A DNA stretch of 64,000 bases from an uncultured Clostridium sp. (GTDB taxonomy: Bacteria; Bacillota; Clostridia; TANB77; CAG-508), in assembly GCA_947303785.1 (NCBI GenBank), contig CAMYZH010000003.1:596-64595 (forward strand), written 5' to 3'. Of this stretch, positions 3,023 to 63,100 are shown piece by piece (within the stretch, counting starts at the first letter, position 1; each line of letters opens with the position of its first letter). Under the pieces are notes generated by a model, which did not search any database, had not been told where the DNA came from, and was given only the letters and a program-made list of their open reading frames with translations. The translations under genes were made by a program, and so were the position numbers.

Positions 3023-3052
3023 TATATCTTAACTAGTGGCTTAATTCTTACT
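3023..3052. terminator. Bidirectional terminator hairpin (aagccactagtt...aactagtggctt)
   Basis: 12-bp perfect stem flanked by A/T runs, lying between convergent genes. Confidence 0.6.
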
Positions 3053-3064
3053 ATTTTAAAGAAA

Positions 3065-23317: not shown

Positions 23318-23926
23318 TTATAGATATTTTTTAAAGAGATTTAAAAAAAATGTTGACACATATGCCTCTAGCAATGACGAGATTATTACTATTAAAATTG
23401 CAATTAACACAAAGAATAAATATTTAATAATTTCAAACTTTATATCACTCTCTTTTTTTAATGTATTCTTCACAAAATTTACCCCAGCCACTAGAACTAT
23501 AAACATAGATGTTAGATATATTATGTTATGAAAAAGCATTCCACTACAAATAAAAATAATTGATGTTTTTATAGATTGTGTGGCAAAAATTGCAGAAATT
23601 GTATACCCAATAGAAAATGCTTTTTTTACAATCATAAAATAAGAAATTGGAAGTCCTATAATTGTTGTTGATAAACATGCGGCAACCAAAAAATCTTTTA
23701 TATTTCTGTGAATTGATGTAGTAAAAACATCTTTTTGATTAACATTTTGACTACTCTTAATGTTATTAATTCTTTCACTAGTGATTTCTTTAATTATTCT
23801 CTTTTCAGAATTATTAGTGTTATTTATACAGAAAATAGCAATTACAATTCCTGTTATAGTGATTATTAGCAACCTCAAATATTCTGTAATATTATTATAA
23901 AAATATTCCTTAACATATGTCCTCAT
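23318..23926 (-). CDS. SpoIIM-family (DUF95) polytopic membrane protein
   Basis: About 200 aa with 4-5 TM helices and a position next to xerD, as seen in Clostridia/Bacilli. The family assignment rests on architecture only. Confidence 0.4.
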   Translation of the reverse strand: MRTYVKEYFYNNITEYLRLLIITITGIVIAIFCINNTNNSEKRIIKEITSERINNIKSSQNVNQKDVFTTSIHRNIKDFLVAACLSTTIIGLPISYFMIVKKAFSIGYTISAIFATQSIKTSIIFICSGMLFHNIIYLTSMFIVLVAGVNFVKNTLKKESDIKFEIIKYLFFVLIAILIVIISSLLEAYVSTFFLNLFKKYL

Positions 23927-23971
23927 TTGTCCCTCCCTTTTTTCATAAGTATTCCAATAAAATAAAAATAT

Positions 23972-24000
23972 GTGTCAAATGGGACGCCCTTTTTTGACAC
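23972..24000. repeat. Palindromic repeat unit GTGTCAAATGGGACGCCCTTTTTTGACAC (family locus 1a)
   Basis: Self-complementary unit. It recurs at 24063, 48685, 48757, 60354, 60391, 62579 and 62651. Confidence 0.8.
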
Positions 24001-24062
24001 ACTTTTAATTAAATATTTCAATAAAATTGATTAAACAGGCTAAATTTGGGGCAAAAAATGTG

Positions 24063-24094
24063 AGTGTCAAAAAAGGGCGTCCCGTTTGACACTC
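24063..24094. repeat. Palindromic repeat unit in inverted orientation (locus 1b), separated from 1a by about 62 bp
   Basis: Reverse complement of unit 1a with a single mismatch. Confidence 0.8.
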
Positions 24095-24101
24095 ACACCT
24101 A

Positions 24102-25331
24102 TTACATTAATTTGTCTAAATCAGAAAAGATTTCTTCTTTATTCATATTTCTACCAATAAATACAAGTTTGACCATCCTATCACCAACTTCATCATCCCA
24201 TTGTTTCATAATGCTTGGATCTTCTTTTATCATTTGTTCTAATTCTTCTTTTGGCGCAGATGCAATCCAGTATCCCGCTTCTGATAATTGTAATTGTTTT
24301 CCTGCTTGCTCAAAAATGTAAGACATATCATAATCATTCTTAAACCAAACCAAACCCTTACATCTAATTACATTTTTAGGAAATTTAAAATTAACATATT
24401 CTTCAAATTTCTTCGAATCAAAAGGTTTTCTAGAAGTATATACAAATGTTCCTATGCCATATTCTTCAGCTTCTCCTTCATCATGGTGATGATGGTGCCC
24501 ATGATGCTCATGCTCGTGTTCATGCTCTTCATCTTCGTCTTCATCCCCATCATGATGATGGTGGTGTTCATGATCATGATCTTCATCATCATCTTCTTCA
24601 TCTTTTTCTAGTTCTTGAATCCATCCAGCAGAACCAGATATTTTGTCAAAATCAAAATTTCTAGTATCCATAATTTGTCCAACATCAACTTTAGCATAAT
24701 TAGTTTCAATTATCTCTGCAGTTGGTTGAAGAGTTTTAATAACTTTTCTTACCTCATTTAATTCATCTTCTGATATTTCATCAACTTTATTTAATACTAT
24801 AACATTACAAAACTCAATTTGTTGAATCAAAAGGTTTTCAATATCTTCTTCATCAATATCTTCTTTAACTAAATTTTCTCCACATCCAAATTCTGTAGCT
24901 AGTCTTAATGCATCAACAACAGTAACAATATTGTCTAATCTGCAAAGATTTGTCATTCCATAATCAGATAATGAATTTTCTAATACAGAAATTGTTTGAG
25001 CAATTGGCAATGGTTCACAAATACCACTAGCTTCAATCAAAATATAGTCAAATTGTCCTGTTTTCAAAATGTCAACTATTTGTTTCATTAAATCTTCTTT
25101 TAATGTACAACAAATGCAACCGTTTGATAAAGGAACAACTTTTCCATTATCTTTTTCTTGAATAAATCCTCCATCTTGAATTAATTTAGCATCAATATTA
25201 ACTTCCCCTATATCATTTACAATTACCGCAACCTTATATCCTTCTTGATTATTCAAAATATGATTCATTAGTGTTGTTTTTCCAGCACCTAAGTAACCTG
25301 TTAATAATGTAATTCCTGTAGTCTTACTCAT
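24102..25331 (-). CDS. COG0523/CobW-family GTPase with a His-rich insert (Zn metallochaperone-like, ZigA/YciC/Zng1 type)
   Basis: GYLGAGKTTL P-loop, CxCC-like GCICCT segment, and a HDHEHHHHHD...HHGHHHHHDEG histidine tract. Confidence 0.85.
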   Translation of the reverse strand: MSKTTGITLLTGYLGAGKTTLMNHILNNQEGYKVAVIVNDIGEVNIDAKLIQDGGFIQEKDNGKVVPLSNGCICCTLKEDLMKQIVDILKTGQFDYILIEASGICEPLPIAQTISVLENSLSDYGMTNLCRLDNIVTVVDALRLATEFGCGENLVKEDIDEEDIENLLIQQIEFCNVIVLNKVDEISEDELNEVRKVIKTLQPTAEIIETNYAKVDVGQIMDTRNFDFDKISGSAGWIQELEKDEEDDDEDHDHEHHHHHDGDEDEDEEHEHEHEHHGHHHHHDEGEAEEYGIGTFVYTSRKPFDSKKFEEYVNFKFPKNVIRCKGLVWFKNDYDMSYIFEQAGKQLQLSEAGYWIASAPKEELEQMIKEDPSIMKQWDDEVGDRMVKLVFIGRNMNKEEIFSDLDKLM

Positions 25332-25364
25332 TAATTATTTCCTCCTTCATAACTTAAAACAAAT

Positions 25365-25718
25365 TTACTGAACTTTCTTATATAAAGTATCATTTCCAGA
25401 AGAATCTTTAACATTTAAAGTATCTCCTTTTATACTATATTCAGTTTCAAATGGACTAGTATTTCCATCATATAAAATAGAAATTTTATTATCTTTAATT
25501 GAATATGTAAATTTCATTTCTGATCCATATACATTATAATCTCCTGTTCCATCTTCATTGAAAGTATATGTATAATCAGCTCCTTCATATCTCCAACTTC
25601 CTACTATTGATTCTGTTTTTTCTTTCTTTTCTTCTTTTTCCTTTCCACATCCTGTTAGTAGTAAAGCACTACCAAATAGCAATACTATTATTGCTAAACT
25701 TGTAACTATTTTTTTCAT
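25365..25718 (-). CDS. Small lipoprotein
   Basis: Signal peptide and lipobox (LLTGC), 117 aa. Immediately upstream of the CobW gene, so probably co-transcribed. Confidence 0.5.
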   Translation of the reverse strand: MKKIVTSLAIIVLLFGSALLLTGCGKEKEEKKEKTESIVGSWRYEGADYTYTFNEDGTGDYNVYGSEMKFTYSIKDNKISILYDGNTSPFETEYSIKGDTLNVKDSSGNDTLYKKVQ

Positions 25719-25792
25719 AGCAATCCTCCTTAATAAAAAATTAATTTATCTAGTGTAAAAATTTATGTAACAAATTTATTGTAAATTATCTT

Positions 25793-26515
25793 TTACTCAT
25801 ATTTTTCTAAAAGATACTCCCATAACTGTACGTGATTAGATATAAATACCATACACATCAAAAAGCCATACCAAATAACAAATGCTATAATCCCTGTAGC
25901 CGCTTTTCCTTTGTTAAGTTTTTTGGCTATATGCATTGAAATAAATGCAAAAAAAACGACTATAATTCCTGAAATAAAATTGTATAAATTTAAAGCAAAA
26001 CTCTCTCTGCCATCAATAATTACAATTGAAACTCCTCCTATTAAAGATGCAATAGTTGCAACTTTCCAATTAGTTTTTTTCTTTTCTTCACTATCTGTTT
26101 CTTGTGAAATAATCTCATTATTTTCAGTTGTCACTACTTTTTTCGGCTCTTCTTTTTTCTTTTCTTTCACCTCAGTTTCTATTTTTTTTTGAACATTTTT
26201 ATGATTTTTAAGTGTATTATATTCTTCTGTCCACCCTAAAGAAAATGTAATCCCAGCTAGAAACTCATTTATCCCTGTCTCAGACATATAATTATTTTCG
26301 AGTTTTCTTCTTGCCTTTATAATAATAGTACTTCTTTGTTTTTTTTCACAATTCACAAATAATGGACCTATATTTTCATTTAAAGCCATCTCTAATAATT
26401 TTTTTTCATTTTTCAATTGTGGTGCTGTATCTGCAAATATTGAAACAAATTTTTTATTACTTAATAATATTTCTTCTCCATATTTTTCTATTATATTCTT
26501 TAATACTTCTTCCAT
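25793..26515 (-). CDS. Membrane protein, paralog 1 of a triplicated family (conserved ~100-aa N-domain plus a TM region)
   Basis: N-terminal domain (IIEKYGEEILL...ALGW) shared with ORFs 26534-27496 and 27496-28242. Confidence 0.5.
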   Translation of the reverse strand: MEEVLKNIIEKYGEEILLSNKKFVSIFADTAPQLKNEKKLLEMALNENIGPLFVNCEKKQRSTIIIKARRKLENNYMSETGINEFLAGITFSLGWTEEYNTLKNHKNVQKKIETEVKEKKKEEPKKVVTTENNEIISQETDSEEKKKTNWKVATIASLIGGVSIVIIDGRESFALNLYNFISGIIVVFFAFISMHIAKKLNKGKAATGIIAFVIWYGFLMCMVFISNHVQLWEYLLEKYE

Positions 26516-26533
26516 AATAAACCTCTCAACATT

Positions 26534-27496
26534 TTAAGGCATGTACAATATATACCATTTTAATCCGATTCTACCAATTGTTACATAAATATCAGATGTT
26601 CCTATCATACTAATGTTCACTTTATATTCATAAGCTGAACTTATATTAACATTTGCATCATATCTTTCTTTTATATCTTCTTCAATATCTTTTATCTCAG
26701 AATCACTTAATTTTTTACTATCTAAATAATTAACTTGAATATCTTGACCTAATGTAAATAGATTTACCCACATCATATCAGAACCATATTTTTCTTTCAT
26801 CTTATCTCTATATTGTGGTGGAAAATATGAAAAACATTTTTCTTGATCTTTTTGACAGCTTTTGAAAAATCCTCCTATCATTTCCTTATAATTTGGATTT
26901 ATAAATCTATATGCAAAATATCCACATACAGCAATTATAATAATTGTTATTATTATACCAATCATACTTCCAGATGATGTTGCAATTTTTGTTTTTCCAC
27001 CAGCTCCGGCAACACCTTTAAGAAGTGTATGTGGCTGAGCTTTAGGTTTTGAAATTGGCTTAGTAGCAGATTGTACATTGTTTGGTATTTCGACTTTACC
27101 ATTTGGGGAAGAATTTACATTTTCTTCTGGTTGACTTTGTAATTTTCCAACATTATGATTTGTTATTAAATCAACATAAGACTTATCCCAACCTAATGCA
27201 AATATGAAACTAGTTAAAACAGTTTCACTATTTTTCCTTGTTAACTCCTGAACATTTTCTAATCTTTTTTTAGCGATGGTTAAATTTTTCTTTTTTTCTT
27301 CTTCCTTGCACTCAACTAAAAGTTCATTAACCTTTTTATCTAATGCCAAAGTTAATGCTCTTTTTTCTTTTTTCATTTCGGGATATTCATTTGAAAAAAC
27401 CTGAATAAGCTTATTTCTATCAAGCAAAATCTCCTTTCCATTATCTTCAACGATTTTTTTTAATTCATGTCTCATGCTAACTATCTCCTTTCTCAT
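26534..27496 (-). CDS. Membrane protein, paralog 2 of the triplicated family
   Basis: Same N-terminal domain, one TM helix and a distinct C-terminal domain. Confidence 0.5.
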   Translation of the reverse strand: MRKEIVSMRHELKKIVEDNGKEILLDRNKLIQVFSNEYPEMKKEKRALTLALDKKVNELLVECKEEEKKKNLTIAKKRLENVQELTRKNSETVLTSFIFALGWDKSYVDLITNHNVGKLQSQPEENVNSSPNGKVEIPNNVQSATKPISKPKAQPHTLLKGVAGAGGKTKIATSSGSMIGIIITIIIIAVCGYFAYRFINPNYKEMIGGFFKSCQKDQEKCFSYFPPQYRDKMKEKYGSDMMWVNLFTLGQDIQVNYLDSKKLSDSEIKDIEEDIKERYDANVNISSAYEYKVNISMIGTSDIYVTIGRIGLKWYILYMP

Positions 27497-28242
27497 TAAA
27501 AAATTTTAATTCCAAATAATGTTGAAATTCCCATTGAAATAAACATACTTATAGTCAAAATAAGAACCATAATCGGAAAACACCAAACTTCTTTTTTGGT
27601 ATTTTTTGTAGAAACATATGCAATTATTGCACATGCTTCCATTATTATAGAAAATGGTAATAAATCATATTCCCCACTCATTATTGTCATAATTATCATA
27701 AATGGAAAACAATAAACTATTATCATAACACAAAACATTCCTAGAAATCCCAAAGCTTGAATATAACTTGTTGGCTCACTATTAATTGAAACATTTTTTA
27801 TTCTTCTATCATTTTTGGTAGATATTACTTCTTGTCCTTCGTTAGTACTTTTTTCTTCATTTTTATTAATATTTTTAGCCATATTATTATCATTCTTTGG
27901 TTTCTCTATAAAACTAGAATATCTATTTTGATTTTTACTCAATTTCTGATATTCATCATTCCACCCAAGTCCATAAGAAATTCCTTTTAAAACACTATTT
28001 AATCCTTCTTCAGACATATAACTATCCAATTTCCTTTTAACTTTTATTATGCAAATTTCTCTTTGACTATCTTTACAATTTACAAACAATTCCCCAATGT
28101 TTTCACTAAATGCTATTTGTAAAAGTTTCTTTTCCTTTTTCATACTAGGTGCTTCGTCTGAAAATATTGATATAAATTTTTTTGAATTTAATAAAATTTC
28201 TTTTCCATATTTATCTATTATTTTTTTAACTATCTCTTTCAT
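27496..28242 (-). CDS. Membrane protein, paralog 3 of the triplicated family
   Basis: Same N-terminal domain and three TM helices. Its stop codon overlaps the start of paralog 2. Confidence 0.5.
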   Translation of the reverse strand: MKEIVKKIIDKYGKEILLNSKKFISIFSDEAPSMKKEKKLLQIAFSENIGELFVNCKDSQREICIIKVKRKLDSYMSEEGLNSVLKGISYGLGWNDEYQKLSKNQNRYSSFIEKPKNDNNMAKNINKNEEKSTNEGQEVISTKNDRRIKNVSINSEPTSYIQALGFLGMFCVMIIVYCFPFMIIMTIMSGEYDLLPFSIIMEACAIIAYVSTKNTKKEVWCFPIMVLILTISMFISMGISTLFGIKIF

Positions 28243-28260
28243 AAATAATTCCTTCCAATA

Positions 28261-29709
28261 TTACAAATCTTCTAGCTGTTTTCTAAGATTTTCATATTGT
28301 TCTTGTAAATCTCTATAATTTTCATCATATTCTTCGTATTCTGAAAATATAGTCTCTTTTGAATTTTCTATCTCTTCAAATTTTCCTCTTAAAATAGCCA
28401 TTTTCTCATTTCTTGAATTTAACAAATTAGAAATTTTATCAAATTCTGCTAGTTTCTCTTCTAATTTTTCCCTATATAATTTTTGAGTTCTTGATAATTC
28501 TTTTTGCGTATTTTTCTCTTTTTTCTTAATTAGAAATATTTTTTTCTTCTTATTTAGGTTCTCTTTTCCTGACACTATTTCATTATAAATGTCAATTTCT
28601 TTTTCTACCGCATTTTTTCTTTCTTCCAAATCACTTATTTCTTGTTCTAGTTTTTCTAATTCTTCAAGAGTTTCTTCATATTCTTTTGAGCATTGTTCCA
28701 CTCGATTGCCTAAAACATCATGTTTTCTAGTTTTTGATTTTATTAAAGCATCTACTTGTTCCAGCTTCTCATTTAATTCATATTCTTTAATAGCTCGTTC
28801 GTATATTTTTTGAAGTTTTGATATTTTACTTAAATCTATTATTCCAGAAACTGACATATCATCCTGACTACGTTGCATACTCATTTGAGATAGTTCTTTT
28901 TCTAAATATGCATCAAATCTATCTTGTTTGCTTAAACATTCCAACGATAATTTTCTATAAAAACAATGTGTACCTTCCATGTTTTTATAAGAATCTTCAA
29001 TTCCGTCACTTCCCATAAAGCATGCTGCTACAGGTTTTTGAATCATGTTTATTACACAATATCTTATACTTTCAGTAGCATCATTATCACACATGGATGT
29101 TGTTACATTAGTTTCGCACCTTTCATCCCATGGAATAGGTTGCTCAATTTCTCCATTCTCATAAAGCACATCACATCTTCCATCACCCTGTTGAATAAGA
29201 ATTAAGAAATTTTTTAATATCAGTCCACAAATTAATGTTGTTCCATAAATATGATTTAACCTATTTCCAGATAAATATAATTCTTTTGTACTTTGACTAT
29301 TTTCGCAATTTATATTAATTTCTTCCTCAGTAACTATATTTTGTTTTAAATCTTCTTTAACTTTTTCATTCCAATCATCTATAATTTGTGTAGTTAAATT
29401 GTTTAAAACAAATTCTGTACTATCTTTATCTGAAAATATTTTTTCTAATTCATCATTTTTTTCTTCATAAATTTTAGCAAATTCTGATAAATTTTTAATC
29501 GCCGACTCAACTGCAAATTTCGAACCTATACTACTTCTAAAACATGTTGAATCACCATGGCCATCGGCTATGGTGATGATATAATTCGAATCTGTTTTTA
29601 AAAAACCTGAATTATCTTCACAAGGAATATTTTTAGTTATATGGCTATTACCTCTAACAGTTTTGTTAAAAATAAATAAATCATTCATATCCTTAATAGA
29701 TGTTAGCAA
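28261..29709 (-). CDS. PP2C-family Ser/Thr phosphatase (PphC/YegK-like) with a C-terminal coiled coil
   Basis: PP2C motifs CEDN, IADGHGDS, YGTTL, QQGDGR and MGSDGIED, followed by a long E/K-rich coiled coil. Confidence 0.7.
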   Translation of the reverse strand: MLTSIKDMNDLFIFNKTVRGNSHITKNIPCEDNSGFLKTDSNYIITIADGHGDSTCFRSSIGSKFAVESAIKNLSEFAKIYEEKNDELEKIFSDKDSTEFVLNNLTTQIIDDWNEKVKEDLKQNIVTEEEININCENSQSTKELYLSGNRLNHIYGTTLICGLILKNFLILIQQGDGRCDVLYENGEIEQPIPWDERCETNVTTSMCDNDATESIRYCVINMIQKPVAACFMGSDGIEDSYKNMEGTHCFYRKLSLECLSKQDRFDAYLEKELSQMSMQRSQDDMSVSGIIDLSKISKLQKIYERAIKEYELNEKLEQVDALIKSKTRKHDVLGNRVEQCSKEYEETLEELEKLEQEISDLEERKNAVEKEIDIYNEIVSGKENLNKKKKIFLIKKKEKNTQKELSRTQKLYREKLEEKLAEFDKISNLLNSRNEKMAILRGKFEEIENSKETIFSEYEEYDENYRDLQEQYENLRKQLEDL

Positions 29710-29749
29710 ATACTTACATCATTCTCCTTCTCTGTAGGTTTTTTTAGTA

Positions 29750-30511
29750 CTATTCCCAGTCATCTAAATTCCAATCTTCTTCAATATCGCCATCATCAGT
29801 AACACCTGAATCACTTACATCTGAATCATCTAATATTCCATCATTTAAAGCATCACTTACTACACTTCCACCAGTTACTAATTGGCCTGCATCATTTTTG
29901 GTTTGTGACTGTAACTTACTTGATGTTATTGTCACATATTTTAGTAATTTTTTAAATTTATCTAAATCATCTGTTTTTATAACTGCTTCTGAATTTCCAA
30001 CGATTTCTGCTATTGCTTTATCATCAGCATCATCTCCAATTGCAAATCCTATTTTAGTTGCATATCTAAACCATTTATTTTGTTTTATACTATCTAATGC
30101 ATCTTCATAATCATCAGTAGGATATCCGTCTGTCATAAATATAATTATTGGTAATTTAGCTCCTATTGTTGCATTAAGATATTGATCTTTATGCAATTTT
30201 GATTCAAGTTCTTTAAGAGCTGAACCAATATCAGTAACACCTCCTGCTTTAAGGTTAGAATATATAAAATCTTCGATATATTCTGGACCATTGTAAGTTA
30301 TCCAATTACAACCGCTATTAAATTCAAGTATTGCAATTCTTATGTGTGCATCTCCATTATGTTTTGCTTCTTCCTCTAGTGCTTTTGTAGTTTCAACCAT
30401 AGCAGCATTTAATGTTGCAATTTTTTCATTCTCCATACTTCCTGATGTATCTAGTACAAAAAATACTGTTAAATCTGGTCTTGTTTCAATTTTTCCTGGC
30501 ATATTTGGCAT
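29750..30511 (-). CDS. von Willebrand factor A (vWA) domain protein with an acidic C-terminal tail
   Basis: MIDAS motif VLDTSGSM and an overall vWA fold pattern. Confidence 0.8.
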   Translation of the reverse strand: MPNMPGKIETRPDLTVFFVLDTSGSMENEKIATLNAAMVETTKALEEEAKHNGDAHIRIAILEFNSGCNWITYNGPEYIEDFIYSNLKAGGVTDIGSALKELESKLHKDQYLNATIGAKLPIIIFMTDGYPTDDYEDALDSIKQNKWFRYATKIGFAIGDDADDKAIAEIVGNSEAVIKTDDLDKFKKLLKYVTITSSKLQSQTKNDAGQLVTGGSVVSDALNDGILDDSDVSDSGVTDDGDIEEDWNLDDWE

Positions 30512-30527
30512 ATTAAATTCCTCCTAT

Positions 30528-31844
30528 TTACTTTATATATATTTTATATTTTTCAATATCAATTGAAATTCCTGTTTTTAAAGGTACTATATCTTTAGAT
30601 ATAACTTTTTTTATTTTGCCACTTGGTGTTGTAGCATTCCATACAATAGTCGACATATTTGCTAAACCATATAAGTTTGGATTCGATTTATTTCTAACCA
30701 CTTTTGCAACTGGCTTTAATGCTTCATTTGTATTACTTCTACCTATTTGGAAATTATATATTCTAGTATCTTCTTTTCCAGGTGCTAAGAAATTATCTAT
30801 TTCTATATAATTTTTAATGTTCAAATCTTTATTACAACAATCACATGAAGTTATTTCGTTTTTAAGGAATACTGAATTACCGCATTTTTCACAAATTATT
30901 ATATCATTTCTAAATTTTGCAATATTCTCCATCCATTCAATTTCTCTTGGTCTATAATTTACATTTTTTATTAGAGCTTCTCTACTGAAAGCCTTTATAA
31001 AGATGTCTTTTATGTAACTTGGGAAATATGGCCATATACTAATAACATTTTGATGTATTGCTTGCAAAGGACTGTTACTCTTATCTTTAGGATCTAGCAT
31101 AAATGTAGCACCTTTTCCATATAATTCATCAGATAGTGCATCAATATTTCCACATTTTTTTATTTTCTTACCTTCCAGTGGGTGTGTATTTGTAAAAAGC
31201 ATAAATATTAAAAGTGCTAGTGAATATAAATCGCTCATTGTATCAGGCTTTATTTTACCTTTTCCCATTACTATTTCTGGAGCCATATAACGTGGTTTTC
31301 CTAAAACTCCCATATCTATTCCATTTGGAGATACATTATCATTATCACCAATTAAAATACTTCCTGTATTTGGATTAATGAAAAAATTACCATCATTCAA
31401 ATCTTGATAACTATATCCAATATTATGTAATTTTCTAAATGCAGAAACCATATTTAGTGTTGCATCACATACAACTTTAAAGTTCTTAAAATGTACATTT
31501 CCTAGAATATACTCTGTTATGGTATAATAACCATCTTTAACTAAATCCATAACATATCCAAATGTGCCATCTTTTTTTTCAGTTACATCAATTGGCCATA
31601 AAAACTCTTTGCCTGGTGTAGTTTTTTCTTTATTATTAACTAAATTTTCATAAAATTTATCTGGAACAGCTCCATCTTTTCTTTTTTTATACCATTTTAA
31701 AGCTTTTAGACTTGAATCATAATCTACCAGGTATACATATCCTTGTCCACCTTCACCTAAAAGCTTTTGAACAACTATTTTCTTTCCATCAATTGTACGA
31801 ATAATTGTGCCTATTCTTAATCCTTTCTCATCAGCTATTTTAAT
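30528..31844 (-). CDS. Divergent Ser/Thr protein kinase (YegI-like) with a C-terminal Cys4 zinc ribbon; there is no ATG start
   Basis: Gly-loop GEGGQGYVY, the segment ALKWY, catalytic YQDLNDGN, the APE motif YMAPE and CEKCG...CDCC. The frame is open from the TAA at 31854-31856 and its first ATG lies after the Gly-loop. The sequence AAAGGGGGAG precedes ATT and ATA codons. Confidence 0.7.
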   Translation of the reverse strand: MKIADEKGLRIGTIIRTIDGKKIVVQKLLGEGGQGYVYLVDYDSSLKALKWYKKRKDGAVPDKFYENLVNNKEKTTPGKEFLWPIDVTEKKDGTFGYVMDLVKDGYYTITEYILGNVHFKNFKVVCDATLNMVSAFRKLHNIGYSYQDLNDGNFFINPNTGSILIGDNDNVSPNGIDMGVLGKPRYMAPEIVMGKGKIKPDTMSDLYSLALLIFMLFTNTHPLEGKKIKKCGNIDALSDELYGKGATFMLDPKDKSNSPLQAIHQNVISIWPYFPSYIKDIFIKAFSREALIKNVNYRPREIEWMENIAKFRNDIIICEKCGNSVFLKNEITSCDCCNKDLNIKNYIEIDNFLAPGKEDTRIYNFQIGRSNTNEALKPVAKVVRNKSNPNLYGLANMSTIVWNATTPSGKIKKVISKDIVPLKTGISIDIEKYKIYIK

Positions 31845-32075
31845 CTCCCCCTTTTAGCTTTTGAATATAGTTTAAGCTTTTTGCCAACCAAATAAACTTC
31901 AAAATTATTGATATAATACATTTTATATATTTCAAAATATATTAGCACTTTTAAACATTAACAATTTTTTTAATTATATCATAATTATAGCTTTTATCAA
32001 TAAAAAAATGTATTTTATTTAACCTTAAAACTCATTTTAATAGTTTAATTTAACTATTATGCTTAAGATAATAAA

Positions 32076-32330
32076 TCAATTATTCCAATATTTTTTATAA
32101 AAATAGCATAACAAGTCAATAGTATCTTTTTCAACATTTTGTTCATTAAAAATATCATTTTTATCAACTCTTGTTACATATTTATTATCTTTCTTATTTT
32201 TTATAGATTGTAATATATCTATAGGTATTTTCATAACAGTTAATTTATCCATATAACCTAAAATCTCATACACTTCTTTATAGGTCTTAGCAGTAATCAT
32301 TTCTATTTCCTTTCTAAATTTCAATTCCAC
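32076..32330 (-). CDS. Truncated member of the small cassette-partner family (N-terminal half only)
   Basis: Shares the TYKEVYEIL...KIP.DIL motifs with ORFs 38745, 40637 and 43968, and ends right after the YxxYW motif. Confidence 0.4.
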   Translation of the reverse strand: MELKFRKEIEMITAKTYKEVYEILGYMDKLTVMKIPIDILQSIKNKKDNKYVTRVDKNDIFNEQNVEKDTIDLLCYFYKKYWNN

Positions 32331-33672
32331 CTTTTGGTCTAGAAGTTTCCTGTAATAAATCCATATTTTCTGCTATTCTGCTAGCTCCTTCTTCTATTCT
32401 TTCTGCGCCTATTTTTTCAAGCAAGTCAGAAGCATTAGGTCTTGGATTATCTTCAATTTCATGAGGTCCAAACATTCTAATTATTTTTTCAATTACTTTA
32501 TCACAATTTTCACTGATACTATTTAAAGTATAATCGTTTGTAATAACAATATCTCCAAGGCAATTACGATTTTCATAATAATCATCAACACTCGTTTTAT
32601 ACTGCTCAAAAGGAAGCCCTTGTCTATATTTTGAATTATGAAACATGCTTAGAACAGATTCAGGCTTCACAAATACTCTAATAATATTTGTATCTCCCAT
32701 TGCTTTCTTAATTTCATCTAATTCAAAAAAATATGAATCTTCTTTTGAATCTCCAAATGCATCTGAATCTGAAAATACTACTACATCCCCACTTATATTT
32801 ATAGCATCTCTAGGAATTGCTTTTAGTATATCAGGAAGTTTCCATAAATTTCCTATACGAAACTCCAGCACATCAGAATCAAGGTGAATTGCTCCTTTAA
32901 TTTTTCCAGCTAAAGTTTTTGAAAAAGTTGTTTTTCCAGAATCCGGATATCCAGCTACAAGTATCAATAATTTATTTTTACCTTTATATTCAAAACTTTC
33001 ATATTTAGCTTCATAAACTTCGTCTTCCGTTAATTTGGCTCCTTCTGTAACTTCATGTATGTAAAATAATAACTCATTAATATATTCTTTTCTTTCTTCT
33101 TCGCTTTTTATTTCCCTTAATAATCTTAAATTATTTGTACCAATTATTTCTTCAACTTTATCTGCTAAGTCTCTGATTGTTTTAGTATATTTTATAGCTT
33201 TTCTATTGTAAGGAATTTTATCCCCATAAATCCCTGCTTCAGCTGCAGAAAATCTTTCATGTCTTCTCTTTCCTAGTTCAAAAGCAACTAATACAGGTAA
33301 AGTTTGTTTATCTTCTGGGACCCAAAATTGTTGTATAGGTAAATTCTGTTTATCATCTGCCATTGTAATTCTTTCAGGTTTACACTTTTTTATTTTATTC
33401 ATAAATTCTGGATTATCATATATTACTGGAATTAAAAGATTTTCTGTCATTGATTCTTCAGGTAAAGATTCAAACTCTCTCTGTAAATTAAAATATTTTT
33501 GATTTTCAAATATAATCATAAAAATCTCTTCAGTTCTGAACTGAGTTTTAATACTAGGCAAAAAAACTCCTGTCGTTCCATTCTTTTTCCAAATCTTTAA
33601 TAATTCATATAAGGCTTGTTTTACTTCAGCTTGTGTTTTATAACCTTTTCCGCTTTTGCTTTTATTTCCCAT
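32314..33672 (-). CDS. Cassette large protein 1: C-terminal P-loop kinase-like domain (AAA_33/zeta-toxin-like)
   Basis: LILVAGYPDSGKTT Walker A motif followed by a DSD segment. The N-terminal 240 aa has no recognisable match. Confidence 0.45.
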   Translation of the reverse strand: MGNKSKSGKGYKTQAEVKQALYELLKIWKKNGTTGVFLPSIKTQFRTEEIFMIIFENQKYFNLQREFESLPEESMTENLLIPVIYDNPEFMNKIKKCKPERITMADDKQNLPIQQFWVPEDKQTLPVLVAFELGKRRHERFSAAEAGIYGDKIPYNRKAIKYTKTIRDLADKVEEIIGTNNLRLLREIKSEEERKEYINELLFYIHEVTEGAKLTEDEVYEAKYESFEYKGKNKLLILVAGYPDSGKTTFSKTLAGKIKGAIHLDSDVLEFRIGNLWKLPDILKAIPRDAINISGDVVVFSDSDAFGDSKEDSYFFELDEIKKAMGDTNIIRVFVKPESVLSMFHNSKYRQGLPFEQYKTSVDDYYENRNCLGDIVITNDYTLNSISENCDKVIEKIIRMFGPHEIEDNPRPNASDLLEKIGAERIEEGASRIAENMDLLQETSRPKGGIEI

Positions 33673-45670: not shown

Positions 45671-45753
45671 TGGTGCGGGTGAGAGGACTTGAACCCCCAC
45701 GGTCTCCCACTAGATCCTAAGTCTAGCGCGTCTGCCAGTTCCGCCACACCCGC
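45671..45753 (-). tRNA. tRNA-Leu (anticodon UAG) with an encoded CCA end
   Basis: The reverse complement folds as a cloverleaf: GCGGGTG acceptor, CTAGA-cTTAGga-TCTAG anticodon arm, long variable arm, GTTCAAGT T-loop and ...CACCA 3' end. Confidence 0.8.
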
Positions 45754-47919: not shown

Positions 47920-48684
47920 TTGGAGGAAAATATGATAAAAGTATTAATTAATGGTTGTAATGGTAAAATGGGACAAGAATTATCAAAATCAATCGAAAAA
48001 AATGATAATTTTCAAACAATTTGCGGAGTTGATCGACTAGATACAGGAGATAATAAATATCCAGTATATACTGATCTTTCAAAAATCACAGAAGAACCTG
48101 ATGTAATTATAGATTTTTCAATTCCAAAAGCAACATTGGAAATATTAGAATACGCATCTAAAAAGAAAATTCCAGTTGTTATCGCTACTACTGGTTTTAC
48201 TGCTGAAGAATCTGAAAAAATTAAAGATTATTCAAATACAATTCCAATATTCCAATCATCAAACATGTCTTTTGAAATTAGCCTTATGAATCATATTGTA
48301 GCTGAAGTTGCTAAATATTTAAGCAATTCTGATATTGAAATCATTGAAACACATCATAACAGAAAAATTGATGCACCTTCTGGAACAGCTCTAACTTTAG
48401 CAAACACTATTAATGAAGCTTTAGATAATAAATATCATTATGAATATAATAGACACGCAAAACATGAAAAAAGAGATCCAAAAGAAATAGGTATACATTC
48501 AATCAGAGGTGGAAATGTTGTTGGTGAACATACAGTAAAATTCTATTCAGATACTGAATGTTTTGAGATTACACATACATCACAAAGTAGAGGTGTGTTT
48601 GCAGATGGTGCACTTCATGCGGCTGAGTTTTTGGTTGTACAAGATTCAGGATATTATAATATGTCAAATATTTTCAAAAACTAA
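47920..48684 (+). CDS. dapB: 4-hydroxy-tetrahydrodipicolinate reductase
   Basis: N-terminal NAD(P)-binding segment GCNGKMG and the ETHHNRKIDAPSGTA motif. Confidence 0.9.
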   Translation: MEENMIKVLINGCNGKMGQELSKSIEKNDNFQTICGVDRLDTGDNKYPVYTDLSKITEEPDVIIDFSIPKATLEILEYASKKKIPVVIATTGFTAEESEKIKDYSNTIPIFQSSNMSFEISLMNHIVAEVAKYLSNSDIEIIETHHNRKIDAPSGTALTLANTINEALDNKYHYEYNRHAKHEKRDPKEIGIHSIRGGNVVGEHTVKFYSDTECFEITHTSQSRGVFADGALHAAEFLVVQDSGYYNMSNIFKN

Positions 48685-48714
48685 TGTCAAACGGGACGCC
48701 CCTTTTTGACACTC
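48685..48714. repeat. Palindromic repeat unit (locus 2a)
   Basis: ATGTCAAACGGGACGCCCCTTTTTGACACTC, starting directly after the dapB stop codon. Confidence 0.8.
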
Positions 48715-48756: not shown

Positions 48757-48788
48757 GAGTGTCAAAAAGGGGCGTCCCGTTTGACACT
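48757..48788. repeat. Palindromic repeat unit in inverted orientation (locus 2b)
   Basis: GAGTGTCAAAAAGGGGCGTCCCGTTTGACACT, abutting the stop codon of the convergent LtaS-like gene. Confidence 0.8.
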
Positions 48789-60354: not shown

Positions 60355-60417
60355 TGTCAAATGGGACGGAGGATTTTGACACTAAATTTATGTCAAATGG
60401 GACGCCCTTTTTTGACA
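60354..60417. repeat. Two direct copies of the palindromic repeat unit (locus 3: 60354-60383 and 60391-60417)
   Basis: GTGTCAAATGGGACGGAGGATTTTGACACT and TGTCAAATGGGACGCCCTTTTTTGACA. Confidence 0.8.
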
Positions 60418-60502
60418 GCTTTAAAATGTATAAATAAAAAACACTAATATGTCACAGTTTTTAACTACATTCCATATTAGTGTTTTTATATTTCTTTAGT
60501 TT

Positions 60503-62735: not shown

Positions 62736-62740
62736 ATAAA

Positions 62741-63100
62741 AAGTAAGTCTATAAGCCGGGTTCTGTCTTGAATAGCCATTTATCTAGGATATATATCACT
62801 ATATACCTCAAGCCACCTACGCTAAACCAAAAAGAGACGAGCAGTCTTTATCTTTTTGTTAATTGCAAGATGTTGCTCCAGGTGGGGTTTACACGAACAA
62901 GGAATATCACTATTCCTCCGGTGAGCTCTTACCTCACCTTTTCACCCTTACCTTATATATTATAAGGCGGTAATTTTCTGTTGCACTTTCCTTAAGGTCT
63001 CCCTCACTAGACGTTATCTAGCACCATTGCTCTATGGGGCCCGGACTTTCCTCTCATGAATTCTCACGAATTTCATCAGCGACTATTCGGCTTACTCTAT
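62741..63100 (-). ncRNA. rnpB: RNase P RNA, bacterial type A
   Basis: The reverse complement contains GGAAAGTCCGGGC-CCATAG-GCA, AAGGAAAGTGCAACAGAAA, GGTAAGGGTGAAAAGGTG-GGTAAGAGC-CACC, GTGTAAACCCCACC-GGAGCAA and the 3' GACAGAACCCGGCTTA. The 5' UAAGCCG pairs with the 3' CGGCUUA to form P1. Confidence 0.85.

Follow-up and report, generated by a model that had tools for sequence, protein, structure and literature searches.

The 64-kb stretch of contig CAMYZH010000003.1 analysed here (the window), from a low-GC Clostridia-like bacterium, carries on its minus strand, between positions 25793 and 31844, six same-strand open reading frames (ORFs) that encode a kinase/vWA/phosphatase signalling triad followed by three paralogous membrane proteins with a common N-terminal domain of about 100 amino acids (aa), which we call the N-domain (ND). 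In order of transcription the products are a Ser/Thr kinase, a vWA protein, a PP2C phosphatase, and ND paralogs A, B, and C. An earlier annotation made from the letters alone (the sequence-only reading) had described six tightly packed genes here, and all six ORFs are found where it placed them, separated by gaps of 16, 40, 18, 20, and 18 nt; we infer that they form one co-transcribed operon. The triad itself is already known, and the main new element is the ND as its expandable fourth component.

The kinase (30528..31844, minus strand; 438 aa) consists of a Hanks kinase domain (Pfam Pkinase, 7e-14), a zinc ribbon (30834..30893, minus strand) built on C318, C321, C334, and C337, and an FHA-like beta-sandwich at the C-terminus (30531..30812, minus strand). 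More than 4456 homologues, about 432 aa long, are present in the protein collection. Across 22 aligned kinases the GxGGQG Gly-loop, the Lys of ALKWYK, YSYQDLNDGNFFI, CDNDNV, GKPRYMAPE, and the cysteines of CxxC..CxxC are invariant (the four ribbon cysteines in alignments A6 and A8), and the motifs that the sequence-only reading had quoted (GEGGQG, YSYQDLNDGNFF, GDNDNV, YMAPE, and CxxC..CxxC) are thus all present and constant in the family. K50, D148, N153, D167, and the APE are invariant in the 22 homologues, and a profile alignment to PKC-theta equates the family's Lys, Asp, Asn, and Asp with the VAIK Lys, the catalytic-loop Asp and Asn, and the DFG Asp. Two substitutions are atypical for a kinase, namely Gln for the HRD Arg and Asn for the catalytic-loop Lys. 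Because the catalytic residues are kept and Escherichia coli YegI, which has the same Asn, is reported to be an active kinase that autophosphorylates in vitro (bioRxiv 10.1101/819920), the window kinase is probably active; the earlier worry that it might be catalytically dead is not borne out at the residue level, all catalytic residues being retained. Hydropathy shows no transmembrane (TM) segment in the kinase, which is predicted to be a cytoplasmic Hanks-type enzyme.

The kinase ORF has no ATG, GTG, or TTG start. An ATT codon at 31844 lies directly after AAAAGGGGGAG (31838-31853, minus strand), and it aligns with Met1 of the closest homologue, P0004 (74% identical), whose gene has ATG at this position. 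The corresponding start-codon regions lie at about 385-400 in the related locus L093 and at 3040-3056 in another, L001; L093, whose kinase is 95% identical, keeps the AAAAGGGGGAG-ATT arrangement although the sequence after it differs at many synonymous positions. From these alignments we place the kinase start at a conserved non-canonical ATT codon. Public gene calls begin instead at internal codons and give proteins of 340 or 402 aa that lose the ATP-binding lobe, including the Gly-loop and the catalytic Lys; these calls truncate the kinase because of the ATT start, and the start given here corrects a systematic mis-annotation. A decaying operon, in which loss of the kinase start (ATG to ATT) has left the triad non-functional and the paralogs drifting neutrally, would account for the missing canonical start, the shortened public annotation, and the fast divergence of the ND paralogs, but we hold it to be very improbable, since the reading frame is open over all 438 codons, the N-terminal lobe stays conserved as protein in the 95%-identical relative although synonymous changes are many, the window and L093 have both the ATT and the Shine-Dalgarno sequence in common, all kinase catalytic residues are intact, and none of the five genes downstream is damaged, their ribosome-binding sites being well spaced.

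An AlphaFold2 (AF2) model of kinase residues 303-438 shows the zinc ribbon and then a beta sandwich (pLDDT 93.2). The ribbon has weak profile matches to zinc-ribbon proteins such as S27e and MTH1184. In a Foldseek search of the PDB with the C-terminus, about 30 top matches are FHA domains, whose fold is an 11-stranded beta sandwich (including APLF, DgcB, GarA, and FhaA), with E between 0.009 and 0.5, probability up to 1.00, and a TM-score of about 0.6 relative to the target; Pfam gives no FHA match for this region at E ≤ 0.1. In alignment A8 of the C-terminal fragment, in its own numbering, R59 is nearly invariant and N94 invariant, and these two are at most possible counterparts of residues in the phospho-Thr-binding set of FHA domains (Arg, Ser-x-x-His, and Asn). 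The modelled C-terminal domain may thus be called FHA-like at the level of fold, and phospho-Thr binding by it is a proposal.

The vWA protein (29750..30511, minus strand; 253 aa; Pfam VWA, 3.5e-13) has the intact MIDAS motif attributed to it earlier: the DxSxS is present as VLDTSGSM, and the DxSxS, Thr, and Asp align with those of E. coli YegL. It has no TM segment by hydropathy and is predicted to be cytoplasmic. The protein ends in an acidic di-Trp tail, EEDWNLDDWE-COOH (29750-29782, minus strand), and a tail of this kind is also encoded in the vWA genes of L001-L087. Among the 85 vWA proteins of this lineage, 45 tails were inspected and nearly all have the W..DD.W pattern, and the last 40 residues of the 85 proteins contain on average 1.9 Trp and 12 Asp or Glu. 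The same tail occurs in loci without ND genes.

The PP2C phosphatase (28261..29709, minus strand; Pfam PF13672 PP2C_2, 4.7e-27, aa 19-273) carries the ED, DGHGD, and GSDG motifs. It would be 482 aa long from a TTG at 29709 or 475 aa from an ATG at 29688; its homologues begin MN(D/N)xYxFNK, and the ATG is probably the start. Residues 283-481 (about 190 aa) match only coiled coils of the SMC/Rad50/LmuB type. Pfam and the coiled-coil matches therefore bear out both the three domain calls of the sequence-only reading and its long coiled coil on the phosphatase.

The three genes that follow were said to be paralogs with a common N-domain and differing tails, and the family profile agrees. ND paralog A (27496..28242, minus strand; 248 aa; ND profile E = 9e-42) consists of the ND (aa 1-100, nt 27943-28242), a polar linker, and three TM segments predicted by hydropathy at residues 166-184, 194-212, and 221-239. 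Paralog B (26534..27475, minus strand; 313 aa; E = 6e-32) has the ND, a linker, one TM segment, and a C-terminal domain of about 125 aa. An alternative start at 27496 would lengthen it to 320 aa; the ATG at 27475 is preceded by AAGGAG at 9 nt and database gene calls for this protein are 313 aa long, so that 27475 is most likely the start. Paralog C (25793..26515, minus strand; 240 aa; E = 6e-39) joins the ND (aa 1-101) through a Lys/Glu-rich linker to three segments predicted in the same way at 151-169, 174-192, and 207-225. The NDs of the three are 36-59% identical to one another, no further ORF in the window matches the family profile at E ≤ 10, and Pfam, NCBIfam, and PADLOC have no family for any of the three proteins. 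In the TM-bearing variants the ND is predicted to lie on the cytoplasmic side.

The triad has a recognizable identity. By the account in PMC11090510 and PMC4978471, the TerY-P triad (Anantharaman, Iyer and Aravind 2012) unites a vWA protein of the TerY type, a phosphatase of the PP2C family, and a Ser/Thr kinase with a C-terminal zinc ribbon. The window has a MIDAS-bearing vWA protein, a PP2C phosphatase, and a kinase-zinc ribbon fusion in three adjacent co-oriented genes, and proteins with TerY_C (PF15616) are encoded beside the triad in 30 of 80 related genome loci; the trio is very probably a TerY-P phosphorylation triad, in a form that marks a lineage of Firmicutes. This lineage goes beyond TerY-P in the FHA-like domain of its kinase, the acidic di-Trp tail of its vWA protein, the coiled coil of its phosphatase, and the multi-copy ND family, and the window lacks the ter genes, the McrBC/CoCoNuT genes, and the DNA-processing genes. 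As far as the libraries and papers examined show (the founding TerY-P paper excepted), these four additions are undescribed.

Two further comparisons place the triad. A TerY-P-like cassette of Gao et al. 2020, as presented in PMC11090510 and PMC7699616, was shown to defend against T7-like phages. It combines the same three enzyme classes in one cassette, but its kinase ends in an OB fold and has no zinc ribbon, whereas the window kinase has a zinc ribbon and an FHA-like domain and no OB folds in Foldseek, and ND proteins are not part of the Gao system. The likeness to E. coli yegI-yegL-pphC that the sequence-only reading had noticed is supported by BLASTP as distant homology of all three proteins: the kinase is 23% identical to YegI over 348 aa (E = 1e-11), YegI likewise having Asn (GDVNQNS) where the catalytic-loop Lys would stand, and likewise Cys residues after its kinase domain; YegL and the vWA protein are 28% identical (E = 6e-11), and the phosphatase matches PphC at E = 5e-5. 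YegI, however, is a 648-aa two-pass membrane protein, whereas the window kinase has no hydrophobic segment; the E. coli order is yegL-pphC-(yegJ)-yegI and that of the window kinase-vWA-PP2C; YegL lacks the acidic W tail and PphC (YegK) the coiled coil; and the E. coli module neighbours an Hsp70-like gene, yegD, and has no ND genes, as had been said of the membrane partners. The description of the triad as having no known function was correct in part, but the triad has a name, TerY-P, and a TerY-P-like relative is antiphage. Against PADLOC the kinase matches only the generic PD-T4-6 and mad6 models, the phosphatase has four weak coiled-coil matches (LmuB/JetC, E 0.007-0.076), and the vWA protein has no match at all; NCBIfam likewise gives no family for the vWA protein or the phosphatase beyond the coiled-coil matches of the latter.

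The evidence that the ND belongs with this triad comes from the genomic distribution of both. A word-indexed search with the three ND sequences returned 2 proteins only, and an exhaustive hidden Markov model search was used instead; as a profile search of 1.84 billion representative proteins it gave 437 ND clusters at E ≤ 1e-3. The kinase marks 507 loci in 185,579 species-representative genomes, mostly of Oscillospiraceae, Lachnospiraceae, Ruminococcus, and Blautia, with some in Coriobacteriia, Treponema, and Bacteroidales. For 80 genome loci retrieved by kinase alignment, the six-frame ORFs of the flanks were searched with the ND profile. The kinase-vWA-PP2C order is complete in 75 of the 80, and 54 of these 75 have one or more ND genes within the flanks covered (51 of 68 where the flank is at least 3 kb). 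The number of copies per locus is one in 26 loci, two in 18, three in 4, four in 3, five in 1, and six in 2; 76 of the 103 ND genes of the 75 loci lie downstream on the same strand, and in 27 loci an ND start lies no more than 600 nt from the PP2C stop. Set against the rarity of the domain (437 of 1.8 billion clusters), the 104 ND genes that all 80 loci together contain in 1.28 Mb amount to a massive enrichment at triad loci. The reverse look-up agrees: of seven ND representatives of diverse architecture, five (P0136, P0251, P0164, P0134, and P0267) adjoin kinase and vWA genes, one lies on a short contig that bears ND paralogs only, and one, a helicase fusion, has no triad within reach. The sequence-only reading had said that an N-domain widespread without kinase, PP2C, and vWA neighbours would speak against its proposal, and these counts do not show that. 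The ND is very probably a genuine component of the triad system, and ND partners are a regular, expandable component of the Firmicutes triad lineage and not a peculiarity of the window. A phage-borne origin was also considered and is ruled out, the kinase occurring on only 6 of 2.9 million viral contigs.

The ND itself is a previously unmodelled domain. No Pfam family covers it in the 121 members scanned. Its AF2 model is all-alpha, with eight helices (pLDDT 97.1), and neither sequence comparison with solved structures nor Foldseek against the PDB gives a match better than E = 0.025 and E = 4.7, respectively, so that the modelled ND is apparently a new fold. The conserved positions are Gly11, Asp27, Pro30, Glu35, and Trp93, and an acidic motif, DxAPxLxKExK, lies in the loop between helices 3 and 4. 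The ND is N-terminal in most members and the C-termini are variable. A CxxC..CPFCG zinc ribbon of about 35 aa precedes the ND in 74 of 150 proteins; the window's copies and their closest relatives have no such N-terminal ribbon. The regions after the ND in the 121 members include Sel1 repeats (31), BspA-type leucine-rich repeats (LRR_5; 14), and MORN repeats (7), with others carrying TPR, DUF6273, dockerin, or SH3 domains, and there are single cases of fusion to FtsZ, Hsp70, a TcaA-like ectodomain, a UPF1-like SF1 helicase, and a dynamin-like GTPase. That ND proteins are in general membrane or surface proteins is ruled out, as 76% of 259 have no TM segment; the three in the window belong to the membrane-anchored minority.

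Two loci illustrate the range of these architectures. L096 (1544-13519) has an HNH gene, the triad, and then genes for five ND proteins, in which the ND is fused to FtsZ, TPR, Sel1, an unassigned domain, and a dynamin-like GTPase, and an integrase gene is nearby. In L090 (9974-14071) the ND heads the UPF1-like SF1 helicase, of 1356 aa, whose gene adjoins those of a RecQ helicase and of ParE/Phd and PIN toxin-antitoxin proteins.

A constant helical N-terminus with variable C-termini is also the architecture of polymorphic cargo, and the ND might by analogy be a targeting or export head, like those of LXG and WXG100 proteins, that delivers cargo to a secretion or assembly ATPase while the triad only regulates. 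Extra triad-flanking genes occur in L008, L023-L027, L052, L057, L069, L073, L076, L077, and L092. A transglutaminase-like gene flanks the triad in 34 loci in all, 31 of them among the 80 genome loci, and the other recurrent neighbours are a TraG/VirD4-like ATPase with a membrane partner protein, FtsK-like ATPases, and extra vWA paralogs; the TraG-like ATPase matches PADLOC mad8 at 1.3e-16, and together with the mad6 match of the kinase, both being weak, this is no more than a lead towards a connection with MADS. That many relatives encode a TraG/VirD4-like or FtsK/EssC-like ATPase, a membrane partner, and a transglutaminase-like protein beside the triad, and that TerY-P triads have been reported in linkage with WXG100/FtsK modules, would suit an export head. 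The window, however, has none of the transglutaminase-like, TraG-like, or FtsK-like ATPase genes or extra vWA paralogs, being a minimal triad with three ND genes, and no such ATPase is found in its closest relatives L001 and L093; the association of ND and triad is thus already independent of ATPase genes here. Half of ND proteins have a zinc ribbon in front of the ND, many are fused to cytoplasmic proteins (FtsZ, Hsp70, helicase), the TM variants have the ND on the predicted cytoplasmic side, and no toxin domains were found. We judge an export head improbable.

The close relative L093 shows how the two halves of the system evolve. Between the window and L093 the kinases are 95%, the vWA proteins 97%, and the phosphatases 81% identical, whereas the best counterparts of ND paralogs A, B, and C are only 45%, 72%, and 67% identical, and the ND genes number at least four in L093 but three in the window. 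A constant head, fast-changing tails, and a variable copy number are the signature of diversifying partner sets, as known from conflict systems (Kaur et al. 2020, PMC7159879). The fourth ND paralog of L093 (6792-7379) has a C-terminal stretch that matches the PP2C coiled coil at 50% identity and is suggestive of recombination among genes of the system.

On balance, and with modest confidence, we favour a phospho-switch that docks a diversifying set of sensors or effectors through the ND, with a role in biological conflict. The ND would be a constant docking head that plugs a changing repertoire of proteins into the kinase/vWA/phosphatase switch. By analogy with the ligands of integrin I domains, the invariant acidic loop of the ND (DxAPxLxKE) is a candidate ligand of the MIDAS metal of the vWA protein. 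The kinase would phosphorylate Thr or Ser in linkers or in partner proteins, the FHA-like domain would read phospho-Thr, and the PP2C phosphatase would reset the switch. The variable C-terminal parts could be sensors, as in the repeat proteins, or effectors, as in small TM modules such as those of paralogs A and C. In the window's three paralogs the ND is followed by a linker, predicted to be disordered, and a variable membrane module, and these modules would be small 3-TM units and a 1-TM protein with an ectodomain. The ND as itself the phospho-acceptor is ruled out, since none of its Ser/Thr columns is conserved.

The function of such a system is most likely, by analogy, biological conflict, that is, defence against phages or mobile elements, possibly through membrane effectors. 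We favour this role because of the diversification of the partners, the antiphage activity of a TerY-P-like relative, and the integrase, HNH, and toxin-antitoxin genes beside some loci; among the relatives some adjoin genes of these kinds or a TraG-like ATPase.

Several observations weigh against this picture of the ND and its role. First, the association with the triad is incomplete: 21 of the 75 triad loci show no ND gene (many of the 21 are cut by contig ends), and the helicase-fusion ND protein of L090 has no triad within reach (10 kb upstream), so that the ND is not strictly confined to triad loci. Second, the ORFs of the 80+ loci include no fusion of the ND with a domain of the kinase, vWA, or PP2C type, its physical contact with the triad proteins is something that we infer, and it has no conserved Ser or Thr column (the best reaches 62%). 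Third, the FHA assignment comes from Foldseek matches at E = 0.009 or weaker, with none at E ≤ 0.001, and the ATT start of the kinase may mean low or regulated expression. Finally, as to conflict, most modules linked to the ND are binding repeats and not classical toxins, no classical toxin domain was found by Pfam in the 121 ND proteins, PADLOC-DB 2.0 (in which the presence of TerY-P models is assumed) gives no defence-family match for the vWA, PP2C, or ND proteins, and the window operon lies among housekeeping genes (RNase Y, an XerD-like recombinase, SpoIIM) with no evident defence island.

The last of these points would suit housekeeping signalling for envelope or stress, in which a PrkC/PrpC- or PpkA/PppA/Fha-type relay or a metal-sensing switch has the ND membrane proteins as its sensors or targets; this could extend to cell-envelope, division, or membrane-remodelling functions, and we regard it, in either form, as unlikely but deserving of weight. 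The operon stands among core genes, beside a lipoprotein gene and a zinc-chaperone-type COG0523 gene with no intervening terminator, TerY-P was originally hypothesised to be a metal-sensing switch, and the kinase is scarce on viral contigs. The FtsZ, dynamin-like GTPase, Hsp70, and TcaA-like ectodomain fusions of the ND join it to cell-biology proteins. The set of kinase, PP2C, FHA, and vWA domains is also that of the threonine-phosphorylation pathway of the H1 type VI secretion system (T6SS) of Pseudomonas aeruginosa, in which PpkA with its vWA domain, the PP2C phosphatase PppA, and Fha1 form a post-translational on/off switch of a membrane-associated assembly. In PpkA, however, a periplasmic vWA domain is fused to the kinase, Fha1 is separate, and there is no zinc ribbon and no ND family; with four domain types in common (Hanks kinase, PP2C, FHA, and vWA) and no T6SS genes here, the resemblance is an analogy only. 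Against a housekeeping role, sequence divergence and gene turnover between close relatives are much faster for the ND genes than for the triad, and the copy number ranges from 0 to 6, behaviour that would be unusual in partners of a housekeeping system; neither the lipoprotein gene nor the COG0523 gene is a conserved neighbour, and integrase, HNH, or TraG-like genes occur in some loci.

Returning to conflict, the closest published parallel in organization concerns the GAP1-N2 GTPase-centric conflict systems, where a theme of kinase (with zinc ribbon and beta-rich domain), PP2C, and vWA has been described together with variable partners that include tubulin/FtsZ, Hsp70, TM, and repeat proteins, and with small, constant, helical domains placed in front of variable modules (Kaur et al. 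2020, PMC7159879). That theme is reported from actinobacteria only and is built on GAP1 and GTPase genes, both of which are absent in the window, and no Pfam model of that study's domains matched the ND. Like the effector-associated domains (EADs), the ND is a small, non-enzymatic, helical terminal domain that heads variable modules; it differs from them in that no copy is fused to a core component, as homotypic coupling would have it. Possibly, though we find it doubtful, the ND is an adaptor of new fold by which a fast-diversifying repertoire of sensors and effectors (membrane modules, Sel1, TPR, and LRR binders, FtsZ, dynamin-like GTPases, Hsp70, and helicases) is joined to a kinase/FHA/PP2C/vWA switch. 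Gut Firmicutes would then have an immune or conflict system centred on a kinase and served by multiple receptors, in which docking uses the MIDAS site of the vWA protein instead of homotypic pairing, and such a system might, equally tentatively, be organised like adaptor-based innate-immune signalling.

TerY-P-type triads are widespread, and this lineage offers a way to find out what they sense or control. The ND family supplies concrete candidate partners, each with a constant folded head and a swappable C-terminus and encoded beside the switch, and through these proteins the question of TerY-P substrates and partners becomes testable; it also defines a new domain family for which there is no Pfam or NCBIfam model. 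If the conflict reading is true, the known defence architectures gain one that is built on a kinase with multiple receptors and that abounds in the gut microbiome.

The surroundings of the operon allow its boundaries to be proposed. A candidate sigma-A promoter, TTGATA, a 16-nt spacer, and TG-n-TATAAT, lies at 31973..32000 on the minus strand, about 130 nt upstream of the kinase start; it is the best such site in 23900-32400 by consensus match, with 11 of 12 positions and an extended -10, and L093 keeps both hexamers over a diverged spacer. Downstream follow the two genes that the sequence-only reading had pointed out, which Pfam identifies as a DUF5640 lipoprotein (25365-25718) and a COG0523/CobW (cobW) GTPase (24102-25331), both on the minus strand. 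The terminator scan found no terminator-like site on the minus strand between 25793 and 24092, the first hairpin of this kind being at 24092-24077, past the COG0523 gene; because of this the two genes are perhaps read through and may be co-transcribed with the operon, on a predicted transcript from about 31965 to 24077. They are not found downstream of the triad in L001, L093, or the 80 genome loci, and as they are triad neighbours in no relative examined, they are not counted in the system; their membership is ruled out.

The COG0523/CobW GTPase contains HDHEHHHHHDGDEDEDEEHEHEHEHHGHHHHH, a long insert rich in His, Asp, and Glu, such as metallochaperones of zinc starvation have. The palindromic repeats that had been taken to bound the operon are real (23972-24092), but they are not adjacent to it, lying past the COG0523 gene and 1.7 kb farther downstream. 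They are an inverted pair of copies of a 29-nt dispersed palindromic element, GTGTCAAAYGGGACGCCCYTTTTTGACAC, which occurs five times in the window against 0 expected, at 23972-24000 (plus), 24064-24092 (minus), 48684-48712 (plus), 48759-48787 (minus), and 60390-60418 (plus). The copies often form inverted pairs at gene ends, and they look like REP-like bidirectional terminators.

Upstream of the operon, at 32076-33672 on the minus strand, two overlapping genes encode products of 452 and 84 aa; the larger has weak P-loop matches only (Zeta_toxin, AAA_33) and the smaller has no family match. Rfam identified no regulatory RNA in or near the operon, and its matches in the whole window are an RNase P RNA of class A at 62736-63098 (minus strand; 280 bits) and one tRNA at 45674-45753 (minus strand).

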